IMG/VR virus record: IMGVR_UViG_3300010354_000077
Origin: a virus
DNA: 64,000 nt
Strand: one strand, 5' to 3'
Below are positions 12,880 to 31,600 of this stretch, piece after piece (position 1 is the stretch's first letter; every line of letters begins with the position of its first letter). The position numbers were made by a program, and so were the translations under genes. The notes beneath the pieces are model-generated. The model did not search any database and was not told the origin of the DNA. It was given only the letters and a program-made list of their open reading frames with translations.

Positions 12880-12909
12880 TTGCGGAATTTAGAAATAGCC
12901 GTACCTTTG
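12880..12909 (+). promoter_or_regulatory. Bacteroidetes-type promoter: TTG (-33) ... TAccTTTG (-7) upstream of the 12974 gene
   Basis: atttgcggaatttagaaatagccgtacctttgcag. Confidence 0.4.
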
Positions 12910-12940
12910 CAGAGCAAAACGGGTACGGTTATTTTTTTTC
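12899..12940 (+). terminator. Hairpin (CCGTACC / GGTACGG) plus T8 run; overlaps the promoter for the next gene
   Basis: ccgtacctttgcagagcaaaacgggtacggttatttttttt. Confidence 0.4.
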
Positions 12941-12973: not shown

Positions 12974-13816
12974 ATGAAAAAAACTTCAGTTTTTGCTATT
13001 GATTTCCAAAACGATTTCATTGACATTCCGTCAAACCAACTCCCCCAAAATCCAGACGGTACTCCTATGTATTCTCCAGCACTTCCTGTTGCTGGTGCTT
13101 TGGAAGATGTAAAGCGTTTTGTTGCTTGGGCGACCAAAAACATTGACAAAATTTCCAGCTTTTATTTTACACAGGACAGCCACCACAACAACGACATTGC
13201 ACATCCGCAATGGTGGCAGGATGCTCAAGGTAATATCGTCAGCCCCTTCACACCTATTTCCTATGCTGACATCCTTGGTGGAAAGTATGTTCCACGTCGC
13301 TATATGAAGCAATCGAAAGAATATGTGAAGTCTCTCGAAGATCAAGGCGAATTTAGCCACTTCATTTGGCCTGAACATTGTATTGTGGGCACTTGGGGTC
13401 ACAATTTCCATGATGAAATCAATAAACTTAGAGAGACAATCAACCTGAAAGGCATTTGGCCTAACGTCGTCACGAAGGGTTCCAACCCTTTCACCGAACA
13501 CTTTGGTGCATTCAGGGCCAATATCCCACACGCACAAGACCCTTCTACCAATCTTGACTTCAACCTGCTCAACGCACTTATGGGTATGGACGAGGTTATT
13601 GTCGTAGGTGAAGCACGAAGCCACTGTGTTGCTAACAGTCTCAAACAACTTGTAGAAGAGGTTCCTGCTCTCGCACCGAAACTGGTTATTTTCGAGGATT
13701 GCATGAGCGATGTTCCAAATCTTCCAGCGGCTTTCTACGACCAAGTTCAAAAAATTTATGACGATGCCAAAGCCAAAGGCGTTCGTTTTGCTACAACCAC
13801 TTCTTATAACTTCTAA
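12974..13816 (+). CDS. Isochorismatase-family cysteine hydrolase, nicotinamidase (PncA)-like
   Basis: N-terminal VFAIDFQNDF (D-x-Q-N-D-F motif) and a Cys in ARSHCVANS. Confidence 0.55.
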   Translation: MKKTSVFAIDFQNDFIDIPSNQLPQNPDGTPMYSPALPVAGALEDVKRFVAWATKNIDKISSFYFTQDSHHNNDIAHPQWWQDAQGNIVSPFTPISYADILGGKYVPRRYMKQSKEYVKSLEDQGEFSHFIWPEHCIVGTWGHNFHDEINKLRETINLKGIWPNVVTKGSNPFTEHFGAFRANIPHAQDPSTNLDFNLLNALMGMDEVIVVGEARSHCVANSLKQLVEEVPALAPKLVIFEDCMSDVPNLPAAFYDQVQKIYDDAKAKGVRFATTTSYNF

Positions 13817-13828
13817 ATTCTTCTAACA

Positions 13829-14521
13829 ATGACTGAAAATAATTCTCCACTTACCTACCGTTACGGCAGCAACTTTGACCCTAACAACCTCGATACTGAC
13901 AGGGTCGTTCTTTGTGGTCTTGCAATTGATTGCTCACCTTCTATCACTTCATTTGAAGGCGAATTGACAAGAGCTATTCGCGCATTTGTTGACCAAAGCA
14001 AAACTCAAAGTTTTTCGGAGGAGCTTATGCTTCAGATGGTCACATTCTCAAGCGATGTGAAAATGGAAACAGGTTTTCAACCAATTTCCGCGCTCGATTC
14101 AAGTCTTATTAACATCACCAGTCGCCGTGGTTTGACTGCTGGGTATGATGCAGCCAAGCAGACACTTGATTCAATGCTTGCTTATGGCAAGACACTTGAA
14201 AACAGTGGCACTGATGTACGCTATATCTTCATCATCCTTACGGACGGCGAATTTAATGACGGCATGGATTCTAACGGTTCTTCCGTCTCTGCCATCCTGA
14301 ATGACATCAAAAAGGATGAATCGCTTTATGGTAAATTCAGTGCCTTCCTTTATGGTGTCGGAGATCAAGCTACTTTCGATGATGCACGTGCGCGTATGGG
14401 CCTGAAACCAGATGCCATGCTCACATTCGGTGCAACTGGCAGTGATTTCATGCGAATGATTGATTGTGTTTCCAAAAGCATTTCTCAATCTTCTTCTGGA
14501 AAGGCAGTTCCTACCTTCTAA
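13829..14521 (+). CDS. von Willebrand factor A (vWA) domain protein
   Basis: MIDAS-like VVLCGLAIDCSPS (DxSxS), TAGYDAAKQTL (Thr) and IFIILTDGEFNDG. Confidence 0.6.
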   Translation: MTENNSPLTYRYGSNFDPNNLDTDRVVLCGLAIDCSPSITSFEGELTRAIRAFVDQSKTQSFSEELMLQMVTFSSDVKMETGFQPISALDSSLINITSRRGLTAGYDAAKQTLDSMLAYGKTLENSGTDVRYIFIILTDGEFNDGMDSNGSSVSAILNDIKKDESLYGKFSAFLYGVGDQATFDDARARMGLKPDAMLTFGATGSDFMRMIDCVSKSISQSSSGKAVPTF

Positions 14522-14538
14522 TATCTTTTGTAACCTTT

Positions 14539-14568
14539 GGCGGGTAGAATTTCTACCCGCCATTTTTT
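14539..14568 (+). terminator. Rho-independent terminator: 9-bp GC-rich stem plus T6
   Basis: ggcgggtagaatttctacccgccatttttt. Confidence 0.7.
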
Positions 14569-14580
14569 AAATAAACTCTT

Positions 14581-15324
14581 ATGTTATCTGCTGTAACAAG
14601 AAAATCTGATAAACACATCAATTGGTGTGAAGACAACCATTATGTCTTTGAAAACGATAAAATAATTTTTGGTGCGGCCTTCGATGGTTGTTCTACTGGT
14701 GTGAATAGTGAATGGGCATCAAAAACACTTTCTTTGATTTTTAAACAACATGAATATGTTTATTCTGGTTGGGATTTTTCGAAAGGATTTAATGCTGACA
14801 GGTTGATAAACAATTTTCTGTTGGAAGATGTCTTGGATAAAATGGTGACTTTATACGCCGAACTAAATTTAACACATCTTGACTTCCTTTCCACAATAGT
14901 TGTTTTCCTTTATGATAAAGAAAGCAAATGTTTATATGTAAAATTCCTTGGGGATGGTTTTGTTTTTTATCGGGGAATCAACGGTGAAATTATAGAGATT
15001 GGAAATGATGAAGATAATATGCCGAATTATTTGGCTTACCTTATTAATGAACCATTTCCAGAAGTGATAGACAATATTAAGGAAAGGGTTAGTTATCTAA
15101 TCAATGATGTTGAAGATTTTAGTATCTGCACAGACGGTATCAAATCCTTCACTTATAAAATCGACCCTGAAGGTTTGGAACTACGAGACCCAATTCGTTT
15201 TTTGATAGATGATGAAACGATGGCACACCAAGAAAAAGGGTTGATAAAAAAAGTCAACATTCTCAAAAAAGAAGGCTGGTTGTTACAAGATGATTTAACT
15301 GTTATCCGTTATAAAAAACAATAA
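14581..15324 (+). CDS. PP2C-family Ser/Thr phosphatase-like protein
   Basis: GAAFDGCSTGVNSEWAS (resembles vFDGHGG..AA), FLGDGFVFY (GD motif) and ICTDGI (DG motif). Confidence 0.5.
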   Translation: MLSAVTRKSDKHINWCEDNHYVFENDKIIFGAAFDGCSTGVNSEWASKTLSLIFKQHEYVYSGWDFSKGFNADRLINNFLLEDVLDKMVTLYAELNLTHLDFLSTIVVFLYDKESKCLYVKFLGDGFVFYRGINGEIIEIGNDEDNMPNYLAYLINEPFPEVIDNIKERVSYLINDVEDFSICTDGIKSFTYKIDPEGLELRDPIRFLIDDETMAHQEKGLIKKVNILKKEGWLLQDDLTVIRYKKQ

Positions 15325-15326
15325 AA

Positions 15327-16985
15327 ATGGCAAACAAATATTTTTACCAAGACGGCACAAGTATAACACTTGAAGATAAACACAAGTTTGCTTCGGGTGG
15401 TGAAGGTAGTGTGTATATGCACCCTTCGTCGAAGGACAAATGTGTGAAGATTTATCACACCCCTAAAAAAGGAGATGTTGCTGATTTATATAAAGACCTC
15501 ATTGCACTTGATGGAAAATATTTTATCAAACCCGAAAGGCTACTCTTTTCCCAAAAAAACGACCTTGTTGGTTTTGAGATGAAATATGTGGATACATCCA
15601 ACTTCTTCATTTTGAAAAAATTGACTACGAAGAATTTCTCTTTGCAGAATGGTTATGATAAATCGTTTAAGTTCAGTGTCTATAAGAATCTCAAGGCGGC
15701 GGTTGAATCTGCTCACAAGTGTGGTGTTGTTATTGGCGACTTGAATCCCTATAACATCCTTGTGGATAATCGTGGTAATATTTTATTTGTTGACGTTGAC
15801 AGTTACGCTACCAAGAACAAAAAGCATAGTGGTGTCCTTCTGGAAGACATTCGAGACTGGTTGTTTCATCCTTCAATAGATGATAAAACAGATGCTTTTG
15901 CTTTCAATGTATTGATTTTTTGGATGTTTACTTATTTGCATCCTTTCAGGGGGAATACATCGAAATATAAAGACCTTGAGGAACGGGTTGCAAAGAAAGC
16001 ATCTGTACTTTCCAATATCCCAGATTTGGTTACTCCTGCTGTTTATGAACCGTTTATTAATAAGGATATTATTAAACAGTTCTCGGAGGTTTTTGATGGT
16101 GGACGGCGATTTCTGGTAGATATGGTTAATGCAGGGGTTATTCCAACAGATATGGGTGCACCTGTACCAACCAATCTTTCCTCAAAGGACTTGTATATCC
16201 GTTTGATTTTGGAAAAGGTTATTGGAGTAGATGCCAATGAAGACATTTTGGTTGCTACATTGAATGATGAACACAAAGTCTTCGATGTCTCCAACTACGG
16301 TGTCTATAATCAAAAAGATGCTTTTGTGGCTGATGCTGTTTTCCTTGGAAACAAGAATTATATGAAGAGGGTTGGGAACACATATTATGTCAATAACACC
16401 CCAATCAAAAATATCGAATATAATTCGAAGATTCGGGAAACAAATATGAATGGCAGCTTGTTCATGTTGAACACGCAGGATGATTTTGCTTATAAGGTCG
16501 CTGTTGACAATGTTTTGGGATCATCCATACAGGCAGACAGAATGGTTGTTTTTTCGCCGTCCATCTCCCAACACGACTCAATAGTCGCTTTCATAGGGGA
16601 TAACTATTGGTTGTTCATTCCAAACGGAATCAACCATAATCTTGTGAAGACAAATCTCAATATTGTAAACGCTTATTACAGGGGCTGTGTCTTTTGCATA
16701 GAATACCTTGAAAACAAGCAGACAAAATATGGGTTGTTTAAAATCTTTGGAACATCAATTGAAAAAGTAAAAGATTTAACAGATTTTTCTTACTTCGACG
16801 TGAAAAATAACTTTATATTTGTACCCAATAACGGAAGTATTGATTTGATTTCGACTATAAACGGGTCTTTGGCTATGACAATTGATTGCCCAGTTTCGAC
16901 AGTCGAATCGAAGATATTCCACACGAAAGCTGGAATGTTCCTTTATGAAGGTGATAAAATCTACTTTATTAACAGAAAAAATTAA
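15327..16985 (+). CDS. Ser/Thr protein kinase-like protein (N-terminal kinase domain, about 250-aa C-terminal extension)
   Basis: Gly loop ASGGEGSVY; VAIK-like CVKIY; catalytic loop IGDLNPYNILV; DFG-equivalent DVDS. Confidence 0.65.
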   Translation: MANKYFYQDGTSITLEDKHKFASGGEGSVYMHPSSKDKCVKIYHTPKKGDVADLYKDLIALDGKYFIKPERLLFSQKNDLVGFEMKYVDTSNFFILKKLTTKNFSLQNGYDKSFKFSVYKNLKAAVESAHKCGVVIGDLNPYNILVDNRGNILFVDVDSYATKNKKHSGVLLEDIRDWLFHPSIDDKTDAFAFNVLIFWMFTYLHPFRGNTSKYKDLEERVAKKASVLSNIPDLVTPAVYEPFINKDIIKQFSEVFDGGRRFLVDMVNAGVIPTDMGAPVPTNLSSKDLYIRLILEKVIGVDANEDILVATLNDEHKVFDVSNYGVYNQKDAFVADAVFLGNKNYMKRVGNTYYVNNTPIKNIEYNSKIRETNMNGSLFMLNTQDDFAYKVAVDNVLGSSIQADRMVVFSPSISQHDSIVAFIGDNYWLFIPNGINHNLVKTNLNIVNAYYRGCVFCIEYLENKQTKYGLFKIFGTSIEKVKDLTDFSYFDVKNNFIFVPNNGSIDLISTINGSLAMTIDCPVSTVESKIFHTKAGMFLYEGDKIYFINRKN

Positions 16986-16988
16986 GCT

Positions 16989-17621
16989 ATGGAAATTTTT
17001 GGTATTCTGCCTTGGGTTATACTCTCTGCAATCTGTCTTTACTTTGCAACGAAAATTGTAAAAAAAACAACACACGTTGTTGTGGAACCCAAGGTAGAAT
17101 CCAAAGTCCACACAGTGATTCAAATGACGCACAAGATGTCAAATATTATATATTTTAACGGCGATGTTTTGGAGGCAATAAAGACTTCCAAAGACGAACA
17201 CACCACAAAGATTCTTTTACATATTTGTAATAACAAAGGGGGTTGGGGGGCTGGATTTGTACTGGCCCTCTCTAAGGTCTGGCCGCAACCAGAAGCAACT
17301 TACAGATTAGCATACAAAGCGAAGAACGAGTGTTTTTTGGGAGATATTCAGGTGACGAAGGTGGATAAGGGAATTTATGTGGTAAGCATGATTGCCCAAG
17401 ACGGATACAAAACGCCGTCCAACCCACACCCATTAAATTATGACGCCTTACAATCATGTTTGGAAAAAATAATGCAATGGATAAATGATAAGGAGGTGGA
17501 GTTTCCAGTTATTTACGGTCCAAAGTTCGGAACAGGTTTAGCAGGTGGAGATTGGATTTTAATTTCTGAATATCTTAAACAAATCCTCGGTGAAGTACAA
17601 ATAAACATATATGAAATATAG
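16989..17621 (+). CDS. Macro-domain-like protein (ADP-ribose binding/processing) with an N-terminal TM helix
   Basis: NGDVLEA...ILLHICNNKGGWGAGFVLALS resembles the macro motif GDI..AIVNAAN..GGGV..AI. Confidence 0.4.
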   Translation: MEIFGILPWVILSAICLYFATKIVKKTTHVVVEPKVESKVHTVIQMTHKMSNIIYFNGDVLEAIKTSKDEHTTKILLHICNNKGGWGAGFVLALSKVWPQPEATYRLAYKAKNECFLGDIQVTKVDKGIYVVSMIAQDGYKTPSNPHPLNYDALQSCLEKIMQWINDKEVEFPVIYGPKFGTGLAGGDWILISEYLKQILGEVQINIYEI

Positions 17622-18150
17622 AACTACTTTAATCTTCTTTTTAATCAATGTTATAATCCATATAATAGTTAATTCGTTGACGAACAATGATGGGAAAATA
17701 TTTCTGGACTATGTGAGATTTGATTCAGATAATCCCATTTATACAACAGTGACCTACTCTTTCGTACATCTTAGCAATGAACACTTGTTGTCTAATATGA
17801 TGGTCTTTGTGCTTTATAGTTCTCTTTTGGAGGATGTTTTAAATGGACGGCAATTGACTTTTTTGTATATTGGTGGGGCTATTGGTGGCGCACTTTTATA
17901 CGCTACTTTTTGTAGTCAGTATGTTGGATTAGTGGGTGCTTCCGCTGCTTGCTTTTCTTTTGTAGCAGCTTCAATGATTTTAAAATTCAAACCAATACTT
18001 TTCGTTATAACTTTGTTTTTTCTTTATAAAGAAGTATTTGCTCTTATCGTATATCCACTGGAAATAATCCCCACACAAGTTTCTCACTTGGGGGGATTTA
18101 TTTTTGGGATTTTTTTTGCAACCGTTATTAAAATCGAAAAACATGACTAA
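17611..18150 (+). CDS. Rhomboid-family intramembrane serine protease-like protein
   Basis: LVGASAACF (GxSx serine motif) and SHLGGFIFG (catalytic His, AHxxGxxxG) within six or more TM helices. Confidence 0.45.
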   Translation: MKYRTTLIFFLINVIIHIIVNSLTNNDGKIFLDYVRFDSDNPIYTTVTYSFVHLSNEHLLSNMMVFVLYSSLLEDVLNGRQLTFLYIGGAIGGALLYATFCSQYVGLVGASAACFSFVAASMILKFKPILFVITLFFLYKEVFALIVYPLEIIPTQVSHLGGFIFGIFFATVIKIEKHD

Positions 18151-19662: not shown

Positions 19663-19680
19663 GCAGTGAAAAAAAAAGAT

Positions 19681-20340
19681 ATGGTTACAAAAAAAATACT
19701 CTTCAAGACAATTGTCGGGTCAACCGCTTATGGTTGTGACATTACTGGTTCTGACACGGACCTTAAATTTGTTTATGCACAGCCGAATGATGATGTTCTT
19801 GGTTATAATTACGTCCCTAACATTGTCTTAGACAAAGACTCCACAGGTTACGAAATCAGGGAATTTATTCGGCTTTTATCCAAAGGTTCTCCGACAATGC
19901 TTGAAATGATTTTTGCACCGCAATTTTGTGTCCTCGAATTGCATCCAGCGTTTAATTTGCTTTTGGATAACGCTGACAAGTTCTTAACAAAGAGAACAAA
20001 AAATGCTTATATAGGATTTTGCAAGCAAGCCATTTCAGATATAGAAAAAGAGAAAAAAAATCAAAACAAAACTCTTTATCACGTAAGGAGACTTATTGAT
20101 AGTGCCATAGAAATCGCCGTCCACCAAACCCTCACAGTTTATAATAGTAACAACAATCAATATTTGAGAGATATTCGTCTTGGATATGTGGGGTTGGACG
20201 GCGTTTTGGAATCAGCAAAAAAGGATTTGGGTTTGATAGATGAGCTATATGAAAAAAGCAATCTCCCAGAAGACGTTGACAAAGACTTTATGCAATGGCT
20301 TTTAATTGAAACAAGAAATAAAATTAATTGGAATGAATAA
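19681..20340 (+). CDS. Pol-beta-superfamily nucleotidyltransferase
   Basis: GSTAYGCDITGSDTDL fits the h-G-S-x(9-13)-D-x-D NTase motif. The ORF track starts at GTG 19666; the ATG at 19681 is favoured by promoter position. Confidence 0.5.
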   Translation: MVTKKILFKTIVGSTAYGCDITGSDTDLKFVYAQPNDDVLGYNYVPNIVLDKDSTGYEIREFIRLLSKGSPTMLEMIFAPQFCVLELHPAFNLLLDNADKFLTKRTKNAYIGFCKQAISDIEKEKKNQNKTLYHVRRLIDSAIEIAVHQTLTVYNSNNNQYLRDIRLGYVGLDGVLESAKKDLGLIDELYEKSNLPEDVDKDFMQWLLIETRNKINWNE

Positions 20341-21415
20341 AAACACAAATCTTGAACAAGACTATCTCCAGCTTTTGGAAGATATTGTTAAATACGGTGT
20401 CAGCAAGGATGACCGTACTGGAACTGGAACAAAGTCTTTATTTGGCCGTCAGTTGCGACATAATATGTCAAACGGCTTCCCGCTCCTTACCACAAAGAAA
20501 ATGGCTTGGAGGGCCGTTGTGACAGAACTGCTATGGTTTCTCCGTGGAGATACAAGCATAAAGTATCTGAAAGAGAATAATTGTAATATTTGGGATGGCG
20601 ATTGCTGGAAGGCGTATCAAAAACACCTATCACTTTTAGATGAAAAAGGATATTCGACAGTTTTTGAATATTATAAACTCGAAAGTAAAGAAGAATTTTT
20701 TGAAAGACTTGTTAAAGATGAAGAGTTTGGGTGGATGTTTGGTGAATTTGGTCCTATTTATGGTGAACAATACCGTAATTGGACTACTGAAGATGGTGAT
20801 ACTGGGATAGACCAAATACAATGGCTGATAGATCAAATTAAAACTAATCCAGATAGCAGACGTTTGCTTGTAAATGTTTGGAATGTTGGAGACCTTCATA
20901 AAATGGTTTTGCCTCCATGCCATTATAGTTTTCAAGTTTATACGAGAGAGTTGAGTTTACATGAGAGAGTAAAACTTTACGGATTAGAAAAAATAAACAC
21001 TACTGATAATGGTTATTATGAACAAGAATATGCTCGTTTTAAAGTTGATGAACATAACATCCCAACAAGAGCAATTTCTTTGATGTTCAATATGCGCTCT
21101 TCAGATGCTCCTTTGGGACTGCCATTTAATTTGGCGTCTTATGGTCTTCTACTTGAAATATTTGGTAGGATGGTAAATATGGTTCCTGATGAATTGATTG
21201 CTAATTTAGGTGATGTACACGTGTATAATAATCAGGTGGACGGCGTTTATGAGCAAATAAGCAGGACTCCCTACCAATTCCCAAAACTGGTTATGGATAC
21301 TACTTTAAATTTCAATAGTAGTCTTGATGCTTTTTTAGCTACTGCGACACCAAAGAGTTTCAATATCGAGGGCTATGAATCACATCCAACTGTTAAATAT
21401 CCTCTCTCTAATTGA
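20306..21415 (+). CDS. thyA: Thymidylate synthase (ThyA family) with two ~40-aa insertions relative to canonical enzymes
   Basis: DRTGTGT, FPLLTTKK, ELLWFLRGDT, DSRRLL and the catalytic LPPCH...FQVY. One motif copy lies inside a conserved segment (NNQVDGVYEQ) without changing length. Confidence 0.8.
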   Translation: MKQEIKLIGMNKNTNLEQDYLQLLEDIVKYGVSKDDRTGTGTKSLFGRQLRHNMSNGFPLLTTKKMAWRAVVTELLWFLRGDTSIKYLKENNCNIWDGDCWKAYQKHLSLLDEKGYSTVFEYYKLESKEEFFERLVKDEEFGWMFGEFGPIYGEQYRNWTTEDGDTGIDQIQWLIDQIKTNPDSRRLLVNVWNVGDLHKMVLPPCHYSFQVYTRELSLHERVKLYGLEKINTTDNGYYEQEYARFKVDEHNIPTRAISLMFNMRSSDAPLGLPFNLASYGLLLEIFGRMVNMVPDELIANLGDVHVYNNQVDGVYEQISRTPYQFPKLVMDTTLNFNSSLDAFLATATPKSFNIEGYESHPTVKYPLSN

Positions 21416-21614
21416 TATGGTAAAGGTTCATTTTTATATCGACGGGAAATTCAGTAAAGAGATTGAGTTTCCCATGCTACCTAGAATAGGAGACTGGGTG
21501 AAATTTGGAGATAAGGTCTTGAGGGTTGAAAGCGTTCAATTTATGATTGATTCTCCGAAAAAAGGATTTAATTTTGTGGAAATATTCTTAACTAAAATAA
21601 ACAAAAATGAGTGA
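21375..21614 (+). CDS. Small hypothetical protein
   Basis: 79-aa ORF overlapping the thyA end. Confidence 0.3.
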   Translation: MNHIQLLNILSLIDMVKVHFYIDGKFSKEIEFPMLPRIGDWVKFGDKVLRVESVQFMIDSPKKGFNFVEIFLTKINKNE

Positions 21615-22431
21615 AAAAGACAAGGCTTTACGTTACAACAGTGGCAAACAAAGACCAGACCTCCTTCATCCAAAGGCTATAGAAGGATTGGTTGGTGTTA
21701 TGACTGAAGGAGCGCAAACATACGCTCCGAGAAATTGGGAAAGTGGTTTCTCATGGACTTCTGTAATTGCATCTCTAAAACGTCATCTTCAGGCTTTTGA
21801 AGATTGTGTTGACTATGATTTAAAGTCAGGCAAATTACATATTGACCATTTGGCAGCGAATGTGCATTTTCTAAGCGCTTTTTATTCTACATACCCCGAA
21901 GGAGATGATAGGGTAGGACATTGGTTTAGAAAACCCTTAAAGAAAGTTTTTTGTGATTTGGACGGCGTTTTGGTAGATTTTGAACAGCATTTTTTGTCGT
22001 ATCTTGGTTTGCCAACACACCACCCCACCGATTGGGATGATTACAGGTTCAGGGAAAACTACCATAAAGTGATGGAGGACAAAGAATTTTGGCTTTCTGC
22101 TCCCAAATTGATTGAACCAGAGCAAATCACATACCCTATTAGTGGTTATGTTACATCCCGTTCGATAGACTTGGAGATTACAAAAGAGTGGTTGAGACAA
22201 AACGGATTTCCGCTAAAGACATTGGTTGATGTGGGTTCTGGAAATTCAAAGGTTGAGACATTGAAAGAGTTGGGTTGCGATGTTTTCGTTGATGATTATA
22301 TCGTTAATTTTATGGATTGCCAACGGGAAGGAATATTGTGTTACTTAATGACCAGACCACACAATGAAAAATATAATGTCGGCCATTTTAGGGTCGAAAA
22401 TTTTGACGAATTTATTAAAAGACTTCTTTGA
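21607..22431 (+). CDS. Fusion of a dATP/dGTP-diphosphohydrolase-like N-domain and a HAD-family 5'(3')-deoxyribonucleotidase
   Basis: N-terminus LRYNSGKQRPDLL...YAPRNWESG; C-terminus KKVFCDLDGVLVDF (HAD motif I, DxDGV). Confidence 0.45.
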   Translation: MSEKDKALRYNSGKQRPDLLHPKAIEGLVGVMTEGAQTYAPRNWESGFSWTSVIASLKRHLQAFEDCVDYDLKSGKLHIDHLAANVHFLSAFYSTYPEGDDRVGHWFRKPLKKVFCDLDGVLVDFEQHFLSYLGLPTHHPTDWDDYRFRENYHKVMEDKEFWLSAPKLIEPEQITYPISGYVTSRSIDLEITKEWLRQNGFPLKTLVDVGSGNSKVETLKELGCDVFVDDYIVNFMDCQREGILCYLMTRPHNEKYNVGHFRVENFDEFIKRLL

Positions 22432-23531: not shown

Positions 23532-24218
23532 ATGAATAAAAAAAATTTCTTATCGGAAACCATTGAACAGATTTTGTTTGAAATGGATTACAGTGAAGCC
23601 TTGCGCGTGTTTCAACAATACGGCAATGTGGATGCTGGAAGTTTGTCGAAAGATGAATTGAAGAAAATATATAGGAACCTAAGCGTGAAATATCATCCCG
23701 ACAAAAACCCAAACGGTGGAAAAATCTTCACAGATATTAATTCCGCTTATGAGATTTTAGGTAAAGGTAAACCTGCTGGGGGTGGAAGTGGTGATGCCAG
23801 TTATGATGAAGCGAGAAAAAAGAGAGATGACTTGAGACAGCAATTTGACAATCTTAGAAAAAAATACGCTGATGATTTCAAAAGTTACAGTAGAGAAGAC
23901 ATATATGACAGGATGAGACAGGAGAGAGAAGGTAGAAGCAGTTCACAACAAGGGGCAGAATTTAGTGAGCCTTCTTTTTCGCCGTCCACAGCATCCAAAA
24001 TAAAAAAATTCTTTGGATTAAGTCCTTATTCAAGAGAAGATAAAGAAGCATATAATGATTTTAAAAAACAGATAAAGGCAGAGGAACAAGCGTGGATTAA
24101 AACATATCGTTCTGGAAACTGGAATGCAGATTTGCAACAGAGATATGATGATTGGAAAAAGAATACTGCAATCGCTGAAAAAAAATATGCAGATTATTTC
24201 AAACAAAAATATGGATAA
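23532..24218 (+). CDS. DnaJ (J-domain) protein
   Basis: LSVKYHPDKNP...AYEIL (HPD motif), then a Gly-rich linker and a charged C-terminal region. Confidence 0.7.
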   Translation: MNKKNFLSETIEQILFEMDYSEALRVFQQYGNVDAGSLSKDELKKIYRNLSVKYHPDKNPNGGKIFTDINSAYEILGKGKPAGGGSGDASYDEARKKRDDLRQQFDNLRKKYADDFKSYSREDIYDRMRQEREGRSSSQQGAEFSEPSFSPSTASKIKKFFGLSPYSREDKEAYNDFKKQIKAEEQAWIKTYRSGNWNADLQQRYDDWKKNTAIAEKKYADYFKQKYG

Positions 24219-24717
24219 TAAATTCTTCTCAAAAAATATTAATAAAATTCTGTTGGAATCTGATAGTGACAATGTCGAGGATTTCAAAGAAGCCTTGTTA
24301 AATTTGGCAACTCTTGACCTGGAAGACGACCAAGTCAGGATTCCAAAGTTCGACGATGAAACAGATTCTTATATTTTCCAAGTAGGAAAAACTTATATCT
24401 ACGTTAGAAACAGAGAAGAATTGCCAAGCAGCGGCCCATTTGAGTTATTTCTTTTGGATGTAAACGATGAAGTTATCGGATTCATAAGGGGAACGAAAAA
24501 AGGTCACGAAATATCTTTTAATTTGGTTTATCTGGAGCCAGAAAGACGGGGTTGGGGTATCGGTTATGACATTTACGAATATTTTTTGAATAATGGGTAT
24601 ACGATAAAATCTGATAGCGAGATAACAGATGGAACATATAGTCTATATTTAAAGCTATTGAAAGCAGGTTTTAAACCGCTTGTTTTCGATGATGGAAGAG
24701 TTGGATTAACAAAATAA
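24211..24717 (+). CDS. GNAT-family N-acetyltransferase (ORF 24124..24717 trimmed to MDNKFF)
   Basis: ERRGWGIGYDIYEYF matches acetyl-CoA motif A (R-x-x-G-x-G). Confidence 0.5.
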   Translation: MDNKFFSKNINKILLESDSDNVEDFKEALLNLATLDLEDDQVRIPKFDDETDSYIFQVGKTYIYVRNREELPSSGPFELFLLDVNDEVIGFIRGTKKGHEISFNLVYLEPERRGWGIGYDIYEYFLNNGYTIKSDSEITDGTYSLYLKLLKAGFKPLVFDDGRVGLTK

Positions 24718-24729
24718 AAAAATATTTCC

Positions 24730-24737
24730 TATATTTG
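24730..24737 (+). promoter_or_regulatory. TAtaTTTG -7 box about 12 nt upstream of the tRNA 5' end
   Basis: cctatatttgcaacattacat|tgcgaga. Confidence 0.45.
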
Positions 24738-24748
24738 CAACATTACAT

Positions 24749-24819
24749 TGCGAGATGGAAAAGCGGTAATTCGTCAGGCTCATAACCTGAAGACGGTGGT
24801 TCGAGTCCACCTCTCGCCA
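24749..24819 (+). tRNA. tRNA with anticodon CAT (Met, or Ile2 if lysidinylated); no encoded CCA
   Basis: Hand-folded cloverleaf. Acceptor TGCGAGA/TCTCGCC (6 bp plus a 1:72 mismatch); D arm GAA-AAGCGGTAA-TTC; anticodon stem TCAGG/CCTGA with loop CTCATAA; variable loop AGAC; T arm GGTGG-TTCGAGT-CCACC; discriminator A. Confidence 0.65.
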
Positions 24820-24861
24820 CAACAAAAAACCAAGTCAAAAAAAGATTTGGTTTTTTTTATT

Positions 24862-24889
24862 TGGATTGTAGAAAAAAGTCGTATCTTTG
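24862..24889 (+). promoter_or_regulatory. Bacteroidetes-type promoter: TTG ... TAtcTTTG
   Basis: tttggattgtagaaaaaagtcgtatctttgcag. Confidence 0.5.
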
Positions 24890-24952
24890 CAGTATCAAAA
24901 TACACTGATGTGTATTTTGATGAAATTATTTTCAAACTCAAAACTTTTTACT

Positions 24953-25831
24953 ATGTTTCAAAACAAAATTTTCAAAGCAGTTCTTTACGGCGGACTTATT
25001 TTGGTGGTCGGTTATTTTCTTCTCCGAGTAACGATGTTCGCTTATGTAAAACCGAATCAGGTTGGCATTTGGATGACAAATGGTGGAATGAACGGTCAAA
25101 GTGATTATCAAATCTGGCAAGGTTTCTTTCCGATTGACATTACTCCCCTCACAAAATCCTTTGTTCTTCCAGCACAATCTTATTCTGTTGACCTCGACAA
25201 AGCAGTTGTTCTTTCCAAGGAAAACGGTGAATGGACGGTTGATCCACAATTTACCTTCTCTTTGGACAGGTCACAAGCCGTGACCGTTTGTCACAGGTTC
25301 AATTCTTTCGTTGACAATGATGATGACGAAGTTTTTCTTAAATCGGTTGGAACTTATATTCTTACCCCGATTATCAGAAATTCTTTTACGGAAATTATTG
25401 GCTCACTGAAAGATACTGTGATGATGGACAACAAAGTCCTCGTTCAAAGAATGCTTGAAGATAGTGTAAGAGTTGCTTTTAATCGCGTTGGATTCAGGTT
25501 GGAAAATTTTGTTACGGGAATTACGCCCCCACAAAGCATTCTTGCCACCAACCAAGCCAAAAATCAAGCCCTTCAAGCTGTTTATGCTGCTAAAGCAGAT
25601 GTTGAAAAGGCAAATGCGCAAGCTGTTGTAAAGATAGCAACGGCACGTGCAGATGCTGAAGCGATGCTGGTAACAGCGAGAGCTGACGCAGAAGCCAGAA
25701 GGCTGAAACAACAAACCCTTAGTCCACTGCTTATTCAGGCAATGTGGATTGACAGGTGGGATGGTAAGGTGTCACAAAATAATTTTGGAAATGCTAACCT
25801 GATGTTTCAAATGCCTATAACCAATCAGTAA
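24953..25831 (+). CDS. SPFH/band-7 (stomatin/prohibitin-like) membrane protein (ORF 24887.. trimmed to MFQNKIF)
   Basis: N-terminal TM helix; SPFH-like core ...ENFVTGITPPQSILATNQAKNQA...; C-terminal Ala-rich coiled coil. Confidence 0.55.
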   Translation: MFQNKIFKAVLYGGLILVVGYFLLRVTMFAYVKPNQVGIWMTNGGMNGQSDYQIWQGFFPIDITPLTKSFVLPAQSYSVDLDKAVVLSKENGEWTVDPQFTFSLDRSQAVTVCHRFNSFVDNDDDEVFLKSVGTYILTPIIRNSFTEIIGSLKDTVMMDNKVLVQRMLEDSVRVAFNRVGFRLENFVTGITPPQSILATNQAKNQALQAVYAAKADVEKANAQAVVKIATARADAEAMLVTARADAEARRLKQQTLSPLLIQAMWIDRWDGKVSQNNFGNANLMFQMPITNQ

Positions 25832-25867
25832 AAAAAAGTTTTATTAATTGGTTTTGTAGTTTGGTGA

Positions 25868-25921
25868 TGTGGACGGCGGATTCTTGTTTTTTTCGCCGTC
25901 CACCCCAAATTTCGCCGTCCA
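25868..25921 (+). terminator. Inverted motif pair forming a 10-bp hairpin, GTGGACGGCG-(15 nt, T-rich)-CGCCGTCCAC, plus a third direct motif copy 8 nt downstream
   Basis: gtggacggcggattcttgtttttttcgccgtccaccccaaatttcgccgtccacccc lies between the stop at 25831 and the probable start at 25947. Confidence 0.6.
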
Positions 25922-25946
25922 CCCCACACAAAATAACTACACATAT

Positions 25947-26396
25947 ATGCAAGAAAGATTCAAGATAGGAGACCAAGTCTATAAACCAAAAGGGTACCAA
26001 TTCGATGGAACGATAGTATCAGTATTTAAAAATCTGAAAGGTGAAACAAGATTGGTTGCTGAAATGGATGGCAACGGAATGCTGCACATCTTCAATGAAA
26101 ACCAGTTGGAACTTGCCGCTTACAAAACCCCCACAGACATAATTTTACAAAATGAGTGGGAATGGAAGGGGCACAAATATAATTCAACATATAGCTCACC
26201 GATTCACATTTATACGAAAAAGATAAGGAAAAAGGTTTGCGTGTTGGAATACGATAGCGGTGAGAATATTCTCACGGGATATACGATGACAGACAAAACG
26301 GTTTATACCGAAGGTGGAGCACTTGAACAAAAGTTCTCATTCAAGTCCTTTAACCAGCAAGTTTTGTACGATTTGGAATTAAATACCAACTGGTAA
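25947..26396 (+). CDS. Hypothetical protein (ORF 25869.. trimmed to MQERFKIG)
   Basis: The ORF's 5' part is the motif hairpin region. Confidence 0.45.
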   Translation: MQERFKIGDQVYKPKGYQFDGTIVSVFKNLKGETRLVAEMDGNGMLHIFNENQLELAAYKTPTDIILQNEWEWKGHKYNSTYSSPIHIYTKKIRKKVCVLEYDSGENILTGYTMTDKTVYTEGGALEQKFSFKSFNQQVLYDLELNTNW

Positions 26397-26423
26397 ACAT
26401 ATTTATATATAAAAAAACTACTT

Positions 26424-26951
26424 ATGGCAGAAAAATTAACTATGCCGATTTCTCCCAAACTCTTGGGTAAAGAATCGGTTACAGTGCTTAACAACAGAAT
26501 AGCAGACGAATTTGTAGCACACTACTTCTATATGAACGCAGCAAACTGGTGCAACGGTGTTGGTTTTCAAAATGCTGCAAAATTCTTTCAAGCAGAGAGT
26601 GATAACGAACTGGCCCATGCAAAGGGATTGCAGGATTATTTGGTGGGGTGGAATGTTGACCCAATAATTCCACAGGTGAAGACGGAATATAAAATCACTT
26701 CTTTGGTGGGGATTATTAACGAGGCATACAATCTCGAATACGACCTTTTGCAAAAATATATGCAGGGCAGTGAACTGCTTATGGGTAAGGATTTGGCGAC
26801 CTTCGACTTCCTGCAAGGATACCGCCAGATACAGAATGATTCCGTAAAAGAATATGCAGACTTGCTTAATGTTCTTGAAATGCTTAACCTTGGTGAAGGA
26901 GATTATAACTATAAGGTTATTTATTTTGAAAACAATTATTTGAAAGGATGA
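26424..26951 (+). CDS. Ferritin (non-haem ferritin/FtnA-like)
   Basis: Aligns by eye with bacterial FtnA: LNNRIADEFVAHYFYMNAANWC...AAKFFQAESDNELAHAKGLQDYL...DFLQGY, with the ferroxidase E / ExxH residues present. Confidence 0.75.
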   Translation: MAEKLTMPISPKLLGKESVTVLNNRIADEFVAHYFYMNAANWCNGVGFQNAAKFFQAESDNELAHAKGLQDYLVGWNVDPIIPQVKTEYKITSLVGIINEAYNLEYDLLQKYMQGSELLMGKDLATFDFLQGYRQIQNDSVKEYADLLNVLEMLNLGEGDYNYKVIYFENNYLKG

Positions 26952-28639: not shown

Positions 28640-31600
28640 TTAATATCCTGCGACAGTTGCTGTTGCTGTAACCATTACCCTTATCACACTTGCAGCACTT
28701 GAAGTTGTGGGTGGCGTAAACTCTACTTTTAAAGACTCGTTTCCAATTGTATCATCTGCACTTATTGTTACAATCGAAGAAGCCATATTTGTGTCGAATT
28801 TTGCTGTTCCAATTACTTCTGGTGTTCCAATAAGAGAGGTAGTATCACCTATACGTTTTATCAATACGTTATATTCTACACCATAAGAATCACCTAAATT
28901 TAAAGTGCCACCAGCGGTGCTACATATAGCGGCTATTTGCAGTTTGACGTTCCAAAGCCTGTTTGAAGGTAAGATTGCACGTCCTTGATTTGTTGGTGCT
29001 GCTCCATCTAATGTTAGTTCAGTTACTCCCGTTCCAGTTATTGACCTTCGATAACGCCATTGCATTGTCATAGCATCTCCAGCGCCTGAAAATTGGCCAG
29101 AGCCGTAAGCCCTTGAACCATATAATGCTGTATTGACTTGAAGTCCTGACGCAAAGCTATACAAAGCAGATGCCGTACATTGATTTCCTGCCGTAATTGA
29201 GTAGCCTCCAGATGCTGTGCTTGATCCCCCTCCGATTACCATTGAGAAATCGCCAGTTGCTGAATTGGCCTCGCCACCAGAAACTACAGAAAATTGACCT
29301 GACGCCCTATTCCATTGACCAGAGAATATTCCGCTATTTGCCCCAGATGCTACTTGAATATTACCGTTTCTCACCTGCTGCAAATCAACAGCGTATGTAC
29401 CCCTTGCATTGCCACCAGCTACCGCTCCGTTTGGCGCTGGACCAACAATAAACGCTCCTGTTCCCTTTGGTGTCAAAACCAAGTTTGTATTCGCACTGGC
29501 AGAGAAAACACTTATTTGTGCAGAATTTTGTGTTGTCACACTTGTGTTTGCTCCAACAACGACCATTCCATCATCCCTAACCCTAAACAATTCATTTGTT
29601 CCACCGCTGTTTCTGATTAACAGTGAAGATGTTCCAGATGCTACTCCAAGACCGTCTATTTGCAGACTGGCGTTTGGCGAAGATGTTCCGATACCGACCC
29701 TGCCATCGCCCCTAACGACAAGAATATTTGTTCCAGAGCTGTCTTGGAATCTTGCTGCAAAAGAAGTTGAATCTATTGTACTACTCGTAGCTTTCAATCT
29801 TGTTGTGGAATCTGAAGTCGTTAAACCCAGTGTCAGATTCCCATGAAGATGTGTTTGTGTTGTACCAGTGTTACCAAGAACACTTGTATTGGAACCCAAC
29901 CCAACTGCCTGATGACCTATAGCTATTTCGTTAGTAGTTGTAATCCCTTCACCAGCACTTGAAACCAATGTATTAGCACCGATATATATACTGTTTTCAA
30001 AATATTGTGCTGAACTTGTACCATTTGTTAAATATCTTCCAGCATTAAAACCTAACGCTATCCAATTCGAACCAAAAAGATTTTCTCTTCCAGCAAAAGC
30101 TCCTTGTGCAATCCAATTTGAACCGCTTCTATTAAACCTTCCAGCGTCTTGTCCTTGTGCAAACCAAAAACTACCATTTATATTCGACCTTCCCGCGTTT
30201 GTACCTTGCGCGAAAACCCCGTTTACAGTTACACTATTAAATCCAGCTGAATCCCCTAAAAATATATTATTACCTCCACTACCAAAATGCGCCCCCGCAT
30301 TTGTACCTTGAATAATAGATGCAAGACCTTCAACAACTCTTTGTTCGTATGTTGTGAATCCGCCTGTGGATTGGACGGCGAAAACAGGTTCAGCACGATT
30401 TACTGCGTTGATAGCAAAAGTTATAGTTCCATCAAAATCATTTGATGGCGTTACAACTAAATTATTTGTATTATTATGTGAAAAATATAAAGTCTGTGAT
30501 AAAGTGTTTCCAGTATAAGTTATACCTTTTAAACTAATATCGAATGTTCCAGCAGTTCTTCCAGTCACAGTTAAAACGACCCTATACATTCCAGAACTGT
30601 TATTTGTAACTGTTGCTGTAAGTGTGGCTGTACTTCCAGGTGTATGTGTCCATGTAAGATCACTACCAGTCCAGTTTGTTCCAGTATAACCTGAACTCAA
30701 TTCTGTGGTTCCTATGATTGGACCGTTAGACGATGAACGCAAATTAAGTGTCGCTGTTGGACTTGCAACCCTAACACCCAATCTTTGATTTGTGCCATCC
30801 CACGTCAAACCACTGCTGCTTGTGAGTGCTGTTGATGTTGTTCCAGTGGCTCCACTCCAAAACGCAACCTGTGTCGCCGTTCCGCTACCAGTTGTGCCAC
30901 CAGTTGCATTTAATGTATTCCCAGCCAATGAAAGGCCGCTGCCTACGGTGATTGCTGATACGTCACCGTTTCCATCACGGCCCATAACGGTTGTTGCGTT
31001 GGTGCCTGTAGAGTTGGTAAGGCGGAGGGTTCCGTTGATTGTTGTGGCACCGTTGTCGAGGACTTGGAAGAGGTTTGTTGAACCAGAGTTTTGGAGGAGA
31101 AACGCCGTTGTGCTAGATGTAGCGCCAGCGCCTTTTACGTGCAGTTGCGCATTTGTTGATATAGAGTTTATACCAACGCGCTGGCTATTTGCAAAGGTGT
31201 TTACATATATGGCAGGATTCGCATAGGCAGTGCTATAGTCCCTCGTTGAAATAACAATTGGCAGTCCACCCGTATTCCCATCACCAAATGATGTATTAAT
31301 AAGAAATCCGTTCGTTGGGTGATTGTAAAAAATCGAATTTCTGCTGCGCGAGTCTGCCCCACTTAGATATGACCTAATTTCAACGCCAAATGCCTTATCG
31401 TCGAATGCGGGTGCAAATATCATTCCTGTATTTACATCTGATGCTGAATTACCCACAAGGAACGCTGCTCTTGGGTATGGCCCAGCGGGACTTACTGCTG
31501 TAAATGAACAAAACGCATTTGTAACAGACGACCTTATTTCTGCGCCTGTTGAGCGAAATACATTTAAAGGGGATGCAGGAGTTGATGTTCCAATCCCCAA

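Follow-up and report, generated by a model that had tools for sequence, protein, structure and literature searches.

A nicotinamidase gene linked to a TerY-P/YegLKI-type vWA-PP2C-kinase triad in large phages: a possible phospho-switched module for NAD+ salvage

Background

Contiguous genes for a stand-alone vWA protein, a PP2C phosphatase and a Ser/Thr kinase are known from bacterial comparative genomics. In the TerY-P triad, a TerY-like vWA protein and a PP2C accompany a Ser/Thr kinase with a C-terminal zinc ribbon (Anantharaman, Iyer & Aravind 2012, cited in PMC11090510), a form with a kinase OB fold has been validated as an anti-phage defence (Gao et al. 2020, cited in PMC11090510), and a similar kinase-PP2C-vWA theme appears in PMC7159879. 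Escherichia coli carries the genes in the order yegL-pphC-yegI, where both the Ser/Thr kinase YegI and the PP2C phosphatase PphC are active (10.1101/819920, 10.1101/303594). A triad of this type is found on the plus strand of IMG/VR virus record IMGVR_UViG_3300010354_000077, of which a stretch of 64,000 nt was analyzed (the window), and it is described here as part of a four-gene cassette that also encodes a nicotinamidase.

Depletion of nicotinamide adenine dinucleotide (NAD+) is a common anti-phage defence, and phages rebuild NAD+ via three reconstitution pathways, NARP1 (Adps and Namat), NARP2 (Nampt and Nmnat) and NARP3 (PnuC and a NadR-like enzyme). Jumbo phages carry pncB-nadD-nadE clusters and pncA (PMC11662467), and large phages also carry NAMPT, Macro, NADAR and Nudix enzymes (PMC11662467; PMC7824862). 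Terms for a kinase, phosphatase or vWA protein linked to pncA have zero occurrences in PMC11662467, neither TerY nor PP2C is found in the jumbo-phage survey of the Aravind group (PMC7824862), and targeted literature searches retrieved no description of the four-gene combination. The coupling of a TerY-P/YegLKI-type triad to a nicotinamidase, which is widespread in large phages, has apparently not been described before.

The four-gene cassette and its carriers

The cassette consists of two gene pairs, one specifying the nicotinamidase and a TerY/YegL-type vWA protein, and the other a PP2C phosphatase and a Ser/Thr kinase that ends in a beta-propeller. The four genes are co-inherited in large phages, in a clade of Bacteroidota and in Variovorax megaplasmids. 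We favor, with slightly better than even confidence, the view that they form a phospho-switched nicotinamidase module for NAD+ salvage, plausibly one that counters NAD-depleting host immunity. The features of the cassette in the window, with the evidence for each assignment, are:

12974..13816, plus strand: predicted nicotinamidase (PncA/Pnc1-like cysteine hydrolase), 280 aa; family profile, AlphaFold2 (AF2) model with Foldseek search, conserved residues
13829..14521, plus strand: TerY/YegL-type vWA protein, 230 aa; Pfam VWA, intact metal ion-dependent adhesion site (MIDAS)
14538..14572, plus strand: terminator-like hairpin (14538-14562) with an 11-bp stem containing 7 G-C pairs, followed by a T-run; consensus scan
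14581..15324, plus strand: PP2C-family Ser/Thr phosphatase, 247 aa; Pfam PP2C_2, profile matches, metal-site residues
15327..16121, plus strand: eukaryotic-like Ser/Thr protein kinase domain of YegI type, aa 1-265; AF2, Foldseek, catalytic residues
16179..16985, plus strand: seven-bladed beta-propeller, aa 285-552, the C-terminal part of the kinase protein; AF2, Foldseek
16989..17621, plus strand: macro-domain-like protein with an N-terminal hydrophobic segment, a possible accessory; phrog_335

An initial annotation, made from the sequence alone, had marked the interval 13829-16985 as a vWA-phosphatase-kinase triad. The three adjacent plus-strand open reading frames lie exactly as it described (13829-14521, 14581-15324 and 15327-16985, coding for 230, 247 and 552 aa), and they are contiguous, but the conserved unit starts at 12974 and has four genes, so the interval is incomplete. 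The vWA start codon follows the nicotinamidase stop codon by 12 nt, and the kinase start codon lies 2 nt past the PP2C stop. The vWA and PP2C genes are 59 nt apart, and the terminator-like hairpin, a strong one, sits inside this gap, exactly between the two gene pairs. Another hairpin, CCGTACC...GGGTACGG with a T-run, is present at 12900-12940, between the preceding gene and the start of the nicotinamidase gene, and suggests that the cassette may begin its own transcription unit. A scan for sigma-70 promoters performed no better than on shuffled sequence (21 sites versus 22.5 expected).

A nicotinamidase gene also precedes the triad in a 462-kb phage (L001), in two phage contigs (L005 and L007) and in a Bacteroidales chromosome (L004). 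Searches seeded with the kinase found 24 loci in viral contigs and 19 loci with one genome per species, and nearly all those extending far enough have all four genes. The search seeded with the nicotinamidase found at least 182 viral loci (IMG/VR contigs), mostly in large phages; when the best 80 of these were scored with hidden Markov models (HMMs), all four genes were within 9 kb of each other in 71, and several of the nine that fell short end at contig edges. Among non-redundant loci the order nicotinamidase-vWA-PP2C-kinase occurs 66 times, PP2C-kinase-nicotinamidase-vWA nine times, and other orders three times, and every order preserves the pairs nicotinamidase plus vWA and PP2C plus kinase. 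The gap between the nicotinamidase and vWA genes has a median of 17 nt, and the pairwise divergences of the four proteins correlate with one another (r = 0.78-0.86, 77 loci). Recurrence in about 80 non-redundant loci puts the adjacency far outside what chance would produce, and no computational evidence available for a functional connection is stronger than linkage maintained through rearrangement.

The cassette is phage-borne, as the initial annotation had it. The window is phage-like, with dense, co-directional ORFans, several PHROG families, a PhageMetallopep domain, a thymidylate synthase and giant open reading frames with tail-fibre patches, and no housekeeping genes were found in its annotation. 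Relatives are overwhelmingly on large viral contigs, comprising IMG/VR contigs that reach about 600 kb in length and three curated huge-phage genomes. A megablast search of 50,697 phage records with the 3.2-kb region gave no match, and the tblastn relatives were uncultured huge phages only, none of them annotated; the cassette is absent from the cultured phages of the collection. The Bacteroidota copies form a single clade nested inside the viral diversity and lie next to the ATP synthase operon, in a chromosomal setting that is conserved. The Variovorax megaplasmids (about 800 kb) carry a divergent, high-GC version.

The nicotinamidase

The nicotinamidase is the best conserved of the four cassette proteins, with 39-43% identity to its counterparts in L001, L004, L005 and L007, compared with 26-31% for the triad proteins. 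Single-sequence searches with this reading frame gave weak matches to isochorismatase (Pfam) and to PncA. The top matches of the family profile in the PDB were all nicotinamidases (yeast Pnc1, 2h0r, E=2.8e-21), as were the top 16 Foldseek matches of the AF2 model (pLDDT 95.7), with fold scores (TM, normalised to target) of 0.74-0.80 and other isochorismatase-family enzymes ranking below. The catalytic triad Asp-Lys-Cys (D10, K168, C218) is retained in 86-87 of 87 sequences, and its members align with D8, K122 and C167 of Pnc1. The Asp-His-His metal site (D68, H70, H135), a feature that separates nicotinamidases from other cysteine hydrolases, is retained in 86 of the 87, and its residues align with the Pnc1 motifs 'D-W-H' and 'WPVHC'. 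Profile and model both place the enzyme in the nicotinamidase branch of the isochorismatase superfamily.

The cassette enzyme thus shares its fold, triad and metal site with the canonical PncA and Pnc1 but exceeds them in length by about 60-80 residues, carries an insert near residues 86-130 and is extended at the C-terminus, and it also differs from them in being apparently translationally coupled to a vWA protein. Its linkage to pncB, nadE and NrtR, described below, is one that many bacterial NrtR regulons share. Stop-codon recoding was considered for L009 and L013, whose nicotinamidase genes seemed to contain in-frame stops, but these proved to be true stops overrun by tblastn. Phage G encodes a PncA-like protein, gp275 (PMC12484599), which was not matched by the window nicotinamidase at E<=1e-10 and is therefore assigned to a different lineage. 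A solitary nicotinamidase-like gene is found on an 882-kb plasmid of Vibrio parahaemolyticus (L138, 8992-9831), with no vWA, PP2C or kinase gene within 9 kb; it adjoins an RNA ligase family gene, and this layout is common to four Vibrio megaplasmids.

NAD-related neighborhoods and regulation

The genomic context of the cassette is NAD metabolism, with genes for nicotinamidase, pncB, nadE, NAD kinase, macro, NADAR and NUDIX/NrtR proteins. Within 9 kb of the cassette, pncB is found in 13 non-redundant loci and nadE in 12, and these are the genes of the NAD+ synthesis clusters already known from jumbo phages. In all nine of the Bacteroidota loci with upstream sequence, a regulator gene of the NUDIX+WHD_NrtR type lies directly upstream of the cassette. 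NrtR is a repressor released by ADP-ribose, and its operator spans 21 bp with a GT-N7-AC core (PMC2330246). Upstream of the NrtR-like gene are two palindromes, T(T/A)GTGTA-N5-TACAC(A/T)A (in the form TTGTGTA-N5-TAACACAA), about 53 bp apart, which fit the published 21-bp operator (PMC2330246). The pair lies at approximately 4600-4830 of L004, with equivalents in L036, L038, L039, L042, L044, L045 and L046, and the proximal palindrome overlaps a Bacteroidetes-type -7 promoter element (TAnnTTTG). From its sequence, the arrangement looks like the operator pair of an autoregulated gene.

In Variovorax, the nicotinamidase-vWA pair is divergent from an NrtR-like gene that matches its Bacteroidales counterpart at E=5e-44, and nearby are two NUDIX genes, a macro gene and a NAD kinase. 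The PP2C-kinase pair is about 21 kb away, with pncB directly after it, followed by NADAR and NAD+ synthase (nadE) genes. This NAD island (L136 and L137) occupies about 607-646 kb of plasmid 2 of Variovorax sp. SRS16, an 800-kb replicon with many hypothetical genes, and also carries a nucleoside 2-deoxyribosyltransferase and two AlkB genes. The replicon may include a phage-derived region. An NrtR-regulated gene pair of unknown function, nrtX-nrtY, often divergent from nrtR, has been described in Streptomyces, Frankia, Kineococcus, Proteus and Hahella (PMC2330246, Table 1). Its layout resembles the Variovorax divergon of nrtR and nicotinamidase-vWA, and the two may be the same genes; the named organisms among the vWA homologues (Variovorax, Nostoc and Sulfuritalea) show no overlap with the nrtX-nrtY genera.

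Genes of the Ter systems are found near the cassette in two phage loci. Positions 1-4122 of L053, a 226-kb contig, specify TerD, a TerF-like vWA protein, TerC and PRTase_3, 6-10 kb from the cassette, and positions 2719-4590 of L009 carry TerF-like and PRTase_3 genes. Such neighbors would suit a Ter-type metabolite system, in which the nicotinamidase feeds nicotinate to a phosphoribosyltransferase that turns it into a nucleoside-like signal or toxin, along lines suggested for the biosynthetic modules of Ter systems, and the triad acts as a metal- or phospho-switch. The original definition of the TerY-P triad within Ter systems (PMC11090510) would fit this, as would the Band_7 and HAD/NTP-transferase genes in the window. 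We consider this explanation very improbable, since Ter genes occur at only 2 of about 80 loci (L053 and L009) and are absent from the window, and the phosphoribosyltransferase that does recur is canonical pncB accompanied by nadE, which indicates ordinary NAD+ synthesis.

The vWA protein, phosphatase and kinase-propeller

The assignments of the initial annotation, a MIDAS-type vWA domain, a PP2C-like phosphatase and a eukaryotic-like kinase with a long C-terminal extension, are borne out by Pfam, by family profiles and by AF2/Foldseek. The single-sequence Pfam scores of the triad are marginal, and the family-level evidence is decisive. The vWA protein scores 28.9 bits against Pfam VWA (PF00092, cut-off 23.8), its family profile matches integrin I-domains, and its relatives are labelled 'YegL' by JGI. 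Of 82 sequences, 80-82 keep the MIDAS residues D34, S36, S38, T103 and D139 (D-x-S-x-S, T, D). The protein ends in a tail with a conserved SxSxSSxS stretch, where the Ser/Thr fraction is 0.33 compared with 0.15 elsewhere; the tail closes with Phe in the window protein and with a hydrophobic residue in all 82 sequences (Phe in 67). The phosphatase scores 24.2 bits against PP2C_2 (PF13672, cut-off 24), and its family profile matches the bacterial PP2Cs tPphA, RsbX and Stp1 in the PDB; residues D18, D35, G36, D125, D185, G186, D237 and D238, including the metal-binding Asp residues, are conserved in 85-87 of 87 sequences.

For the kinase, RIO1 is the Pfam model that exceeds its cut-off (25.1 bits, cut-off 22), Pkinase falling below its own (24 versus 31.7 bits), and the kinase fold is upheld by AF2/Foldseek. 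Weak, below-threshold Pfam matches to TCAD9 and YrbL are explained by the shared kinase N-lobe. There are 173 full-length relatives, and an AF2 model built from 56 of them (pLDDT 93.2) matched the kinase domains of PDK1, PKA and PknB. Residues G24, K41, D138 (the D of 'GDLNPYN'), N143 and D156 are conserved in 94-95 of 95 sequences, and overall the kinase, PP2C metal-site and MIDAS positions are kept in at least 97% of the 82-95 non-redundant sequences per family.

The extension of the kinase is a seven-bladed beta-propeller according to the AF2 model, in which 28 beta-strands between residues 289 and 550 form seven four-stranded blades, and Foldseek matched this half to the Vps18 beta-propeller. 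A phmmer search with the propeller alone against 1.84 billion representative sequences gave 74 matches, nearly all of them C-termini of proteins of about 520-580 aa or fragments, plus two weakly matching large repeat proteins, and the viral structure library contains just one protein of kinase-propeller architecture. The propeller thus appears specific to this kinase family, judging from these sequence matches. It diverges faster than the kinase domain (mean identity 0.25 versus 0.41).

The triad is a distant homologue of E. coli YegL-PphC-YegI (TerY-P type). The cassette family HMMs scored 76.9 bits against YegI, including the GGEG...KIYH N-lobe, 23.7 against YegL and a weak 15.2 against PphC; identity is 26% over the kinase N-lobe, and BLAST found no match for the vWA and PP2C proteins in E. 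coli. The gene order is identical, but YegI has 648 aa, crosses the membrane twice and differs in its C-terminal region, and the yegL-pphC-yegI locus lacks a nicotinamidase. As in TerY-P, the vWA, PP2C and kinase genes are contiguous and in the same order, the vWA protein is stand-alone with a MIDAS, and all three products are predicted to be active. The cassette differs from TerY-P in that the kinase C-terminus (268 aa) is a seven-bladed propeller rather than a zinc ribbon or OB fold, in having the nicotinamidase as an obligate partner (71 of the best 80 loci), and in lying among genes of NAD metabolism instead of restriction or CoCoNuT systems. PADLOC models matched none of the vWA members and 4 of 34 PP2C members, and a classical-looking control triad (L048) also went without a TerY-named model, so the library may be unable to detect the TerY family.

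This resemblance raises the question of whether the cassette is TerY-P-type immunity carried by phages, serving in anti-phage defence or superinfection exclusion, with the kinase-propeller sensing a competitor and the nicotinamidase acting as effector or accessory, for example by removing nicotinamide that rivals need for NARP1 or NARP2. The shared architecture and order, which is protective where the kinase has an OB fold (PMC11090510), would support this, along with the distant homology to YegL, PphC and YegI, the fast-evolving and family-specific propeller, which resembles an arms-race sensor, the Ter genes in L053 and L009, and a weak likeness of the kinase to the PD-T4-6 and MkoA defence kinases. 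Even so, we judge it unlikely. The kinase C-terminal domain is unlike both known TerY-P forms, the PADLOC result offers no help (the control triad being uninformative), and the Bacteroidota copies lie beside a metabolic-type regulator in chromosomal surroundings that are conserved, not in a variable defence island. A nicotinamidase is also no toxic effector, and the association with pncB and nadE indicates that NAD+ is made, not withheld.

The initial annotation had proposed a different role, host takeover by phospho-signalling analogous to the T7 Gp0.7 kinase. Here the triad would be self-contained, phosphorylating host proteins under the control of its phosphatase and vWA protein, and the nicotinamidase would be a mere neighbor. 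The cassette is indeed phage-borne, its kinase appears catalytically competent from conserved residues and the structural model, the propeller could recruit host targets, and the substrate of the homologous YegI is unknown (10.1101/819920), which leaves room for targets among host proteins. Yet the linkage of the nicotinamidase is as tight as that within the triad and is kept through rearrangements. The same cassette is also resident in bacterial chromosomes, behind an NrtR-type regulator, and in the NAD island of a Variovorax megaplasmid, settings in which host takeover is meaningless. A PHROG search revealed no specific likeness to a characterised phage takeover kinase (the sole kinase match was weak, phrog_2361, E=6e-4, and Gp0.7 itself was not compared directly by sequence). 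The Gp0.7 analogy is accordingly unsupported and this role seems improbable; because the kinase is always accompanied by its own phosphatase, vWA adaptor and enzyme, a dedicated internal switch is indicated rather than broad phosphorylation of the host.

A phospho-switched route to NAD+

The observations suggest that many large phages, and some bacteria, place NAD salvage under a phosphorylation switch. In the mechanism we propose, the nicotinamidase would convert nicotinamide, the product of NAD+-cleaving enzymes, to nicotinate, from which NAD+ would be rebuilt via the Preiss-Handler route (PncB, NadD and NadE, supplied by phage or host). The vWA protein, apparently translationally coupled to the nicotinamidase, would be its adaptor. 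The kinase would phosphorylate a component of the cassette, the best candidate being the Ser-rich C-terminal tail of the vWA protein, and either the propeller of the kinase itself or the PP2C may be the docking site of the tail's terminal hydrophobic residue. MIDAS sites are known to bind extended peptides (PMC7159879), so the phosphorylated tail could be a MIDAS ligand, a phospho-serine engaging the metal site as acidic peptide ligands do. The PP2C would reset the switch, and the activity or assembly of the nicotinamidase would be gated by a signal read by the propeller. For the phage, the most likely pay-off would be NAD+ sustained during infection, including against NAD+-depleting defences, while in Bacteroidota the module would operate within an NrtR-type autoregulated operon.

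A more specific version is that the cassette represents a new, phosphorylation-gated NAD+ counter-defence pathway ('NARP4', a regulated entry to the Preiss-Handler route), in which the propeller senses an infection or NAD-breakdown signal, phosphorylation of the vWA tail by the kinase turns the nicotinamidase on, and the PP2C turns it off. This we put forward only tentatively. The cassette would plausibly have the same purpose as NARP1-3, i.e. the phage-encoded recycling of nicotinamide or related precursors into NAD+ against NAD+-depleting immunity, but the enzymes are wholly different, the route passes through nicotinate and needs PncB, NadD and NadE, and no NARP includes a kinase, phosphatase or vWA module. 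None of the NARP1-3 families is represented among the four cassette proteins or among the Pfam annotations of the window from 5 to 60 kb. NARP3, considered as a possible prior description of the cassette, consists of PnuC and a NadR-like enzyme and is unrelated.

Several points weigh against a phospho-switched salvage module. We infer the nicotinamidase activity, the substrate of the kinase and the effect on NAD+, and it is conservation that makes the vWA tail a candidate phospho-acceptor. An elaborate switch on a simple salvage enzyme has no obvious reason. In just about 15% of loci is pncB within 9 kb, and neither pncB nor nadE is present in the 64-kb window, so the cassette there would rely on host enzymes. 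The Bacteroidetes members of the NrtR family are known for control of arabinose and xylose genes, not NAD (PMC2330246; PMC4666351), which makes an NrtR-type regulator weaker evidence of an NAD role in Bacteroidota. Finally, the Ter genes near the cassette in two phage loci fit a conflict role of Ter or TerY-P type. In sum, the functional interpretation of the initial annotation is partly supported: an anti-defence role is plausible, but the NAD-metabolism context points to NAD+ salvage as the means rather than to generic phospho-signalling.

Other features of the window

The kinase stop codon and the start of the macro-like gene are 3 nt apart. The product of the macro-like gene matches phrog_335 (E=2.8e-27) and, weakly, DarG-like models, and has a homologue in the macro protein next to the Variovorax cassette (E=4e-8). 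A scan of the neighborhoods of the other viral loci found no macro gene adjoining the cassette, and the gene is placed outside the conserved core, as a possible accessory. It overlaps the gene for a rhomboid-family intramembrane protease (17611-18150; Pfam Rhomboid, 58.9 bits), and it is unusual for a phage to pair a membrane-anchored macro domain with a rhomboid.

An RlaP-family nucleotidyltransferase (19666-20340) is encoded 2.7 kb downstream of the cassette and is also found near it in L005, L011, L017, L018, L023 and L026; some of the RlaP-bearing loci add genes for Hen1, a PNKP-type ligase, DnaJ and AAA proteins, and it seems that an RNA-repair module travels near the cassette. Next is a long thymidylate-synthase-like gene (20306-21415, 369 aa), followed at about 21607-22431 by a gene with the N-terminal domain of dGTP diphosphohydrolase (PF18909), a pair (20306-22431) that suggests nucleotide-pool editing or DNA base modification. 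A run of cellular-looking genes at 23532-26951 includes DnaJ, a tRNA-Met (24749-24820), a Band_7/SPFH protein and a ferritin-like protein; Band_7 genes are also present within 10 kb of the cassette in L016, L020, L025 and L053.

On the minus strand, two adjacent giant open reading frames (28640-34327 and 34361-40024; 1895 and 1887 aa) match nothing in Pfam or PHROG. The GC content of this block is 0.42-0.46, compared with about 0.35 elsewhere, and one of the two has short patches like annotated phage tail-fibre proteins. A second vWA protein (48512-50599, minus strand, 695 aa), with matches to phrog_2426 (433 bits) and to Pfam VWA and VWA_3, is unrelated to that of the cassette.

Implications

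Two fields meet in this cassette, the warfare between bacteria and phages over NAD+ and the vWA-PP2C-kinase triads (TerY-P/YegLKI). None of the three published phage NAD+ reconstitution pathways has a nicotinamidase or a regulatory module, and the triad is widespread, protects experimentally in one of its forms and shows biochemical activity in E. coli, but has no known substrate or output. In at least 182 viral contigs and in two lineages of bacteria, the cassette joins such a triad to a defined enzyme, which offers a concrete output open to testing, namely the activity of the nicotinamidase and the level of NAD+. The vWA tail is a specific candidate for the phospho-acceptor, and the natural bacterial versions come with a regulator and an operator that can be recognised. 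Should the gated 'NARP4' pathway prove true, it would provide the first natural substrate and output for TerY-P/YegL-PphC-YegI triads, and, if confirmed, the cassette would be a rare example of a phage-encoded Ser/Thr phospho-switch over a metabolic enzyme.

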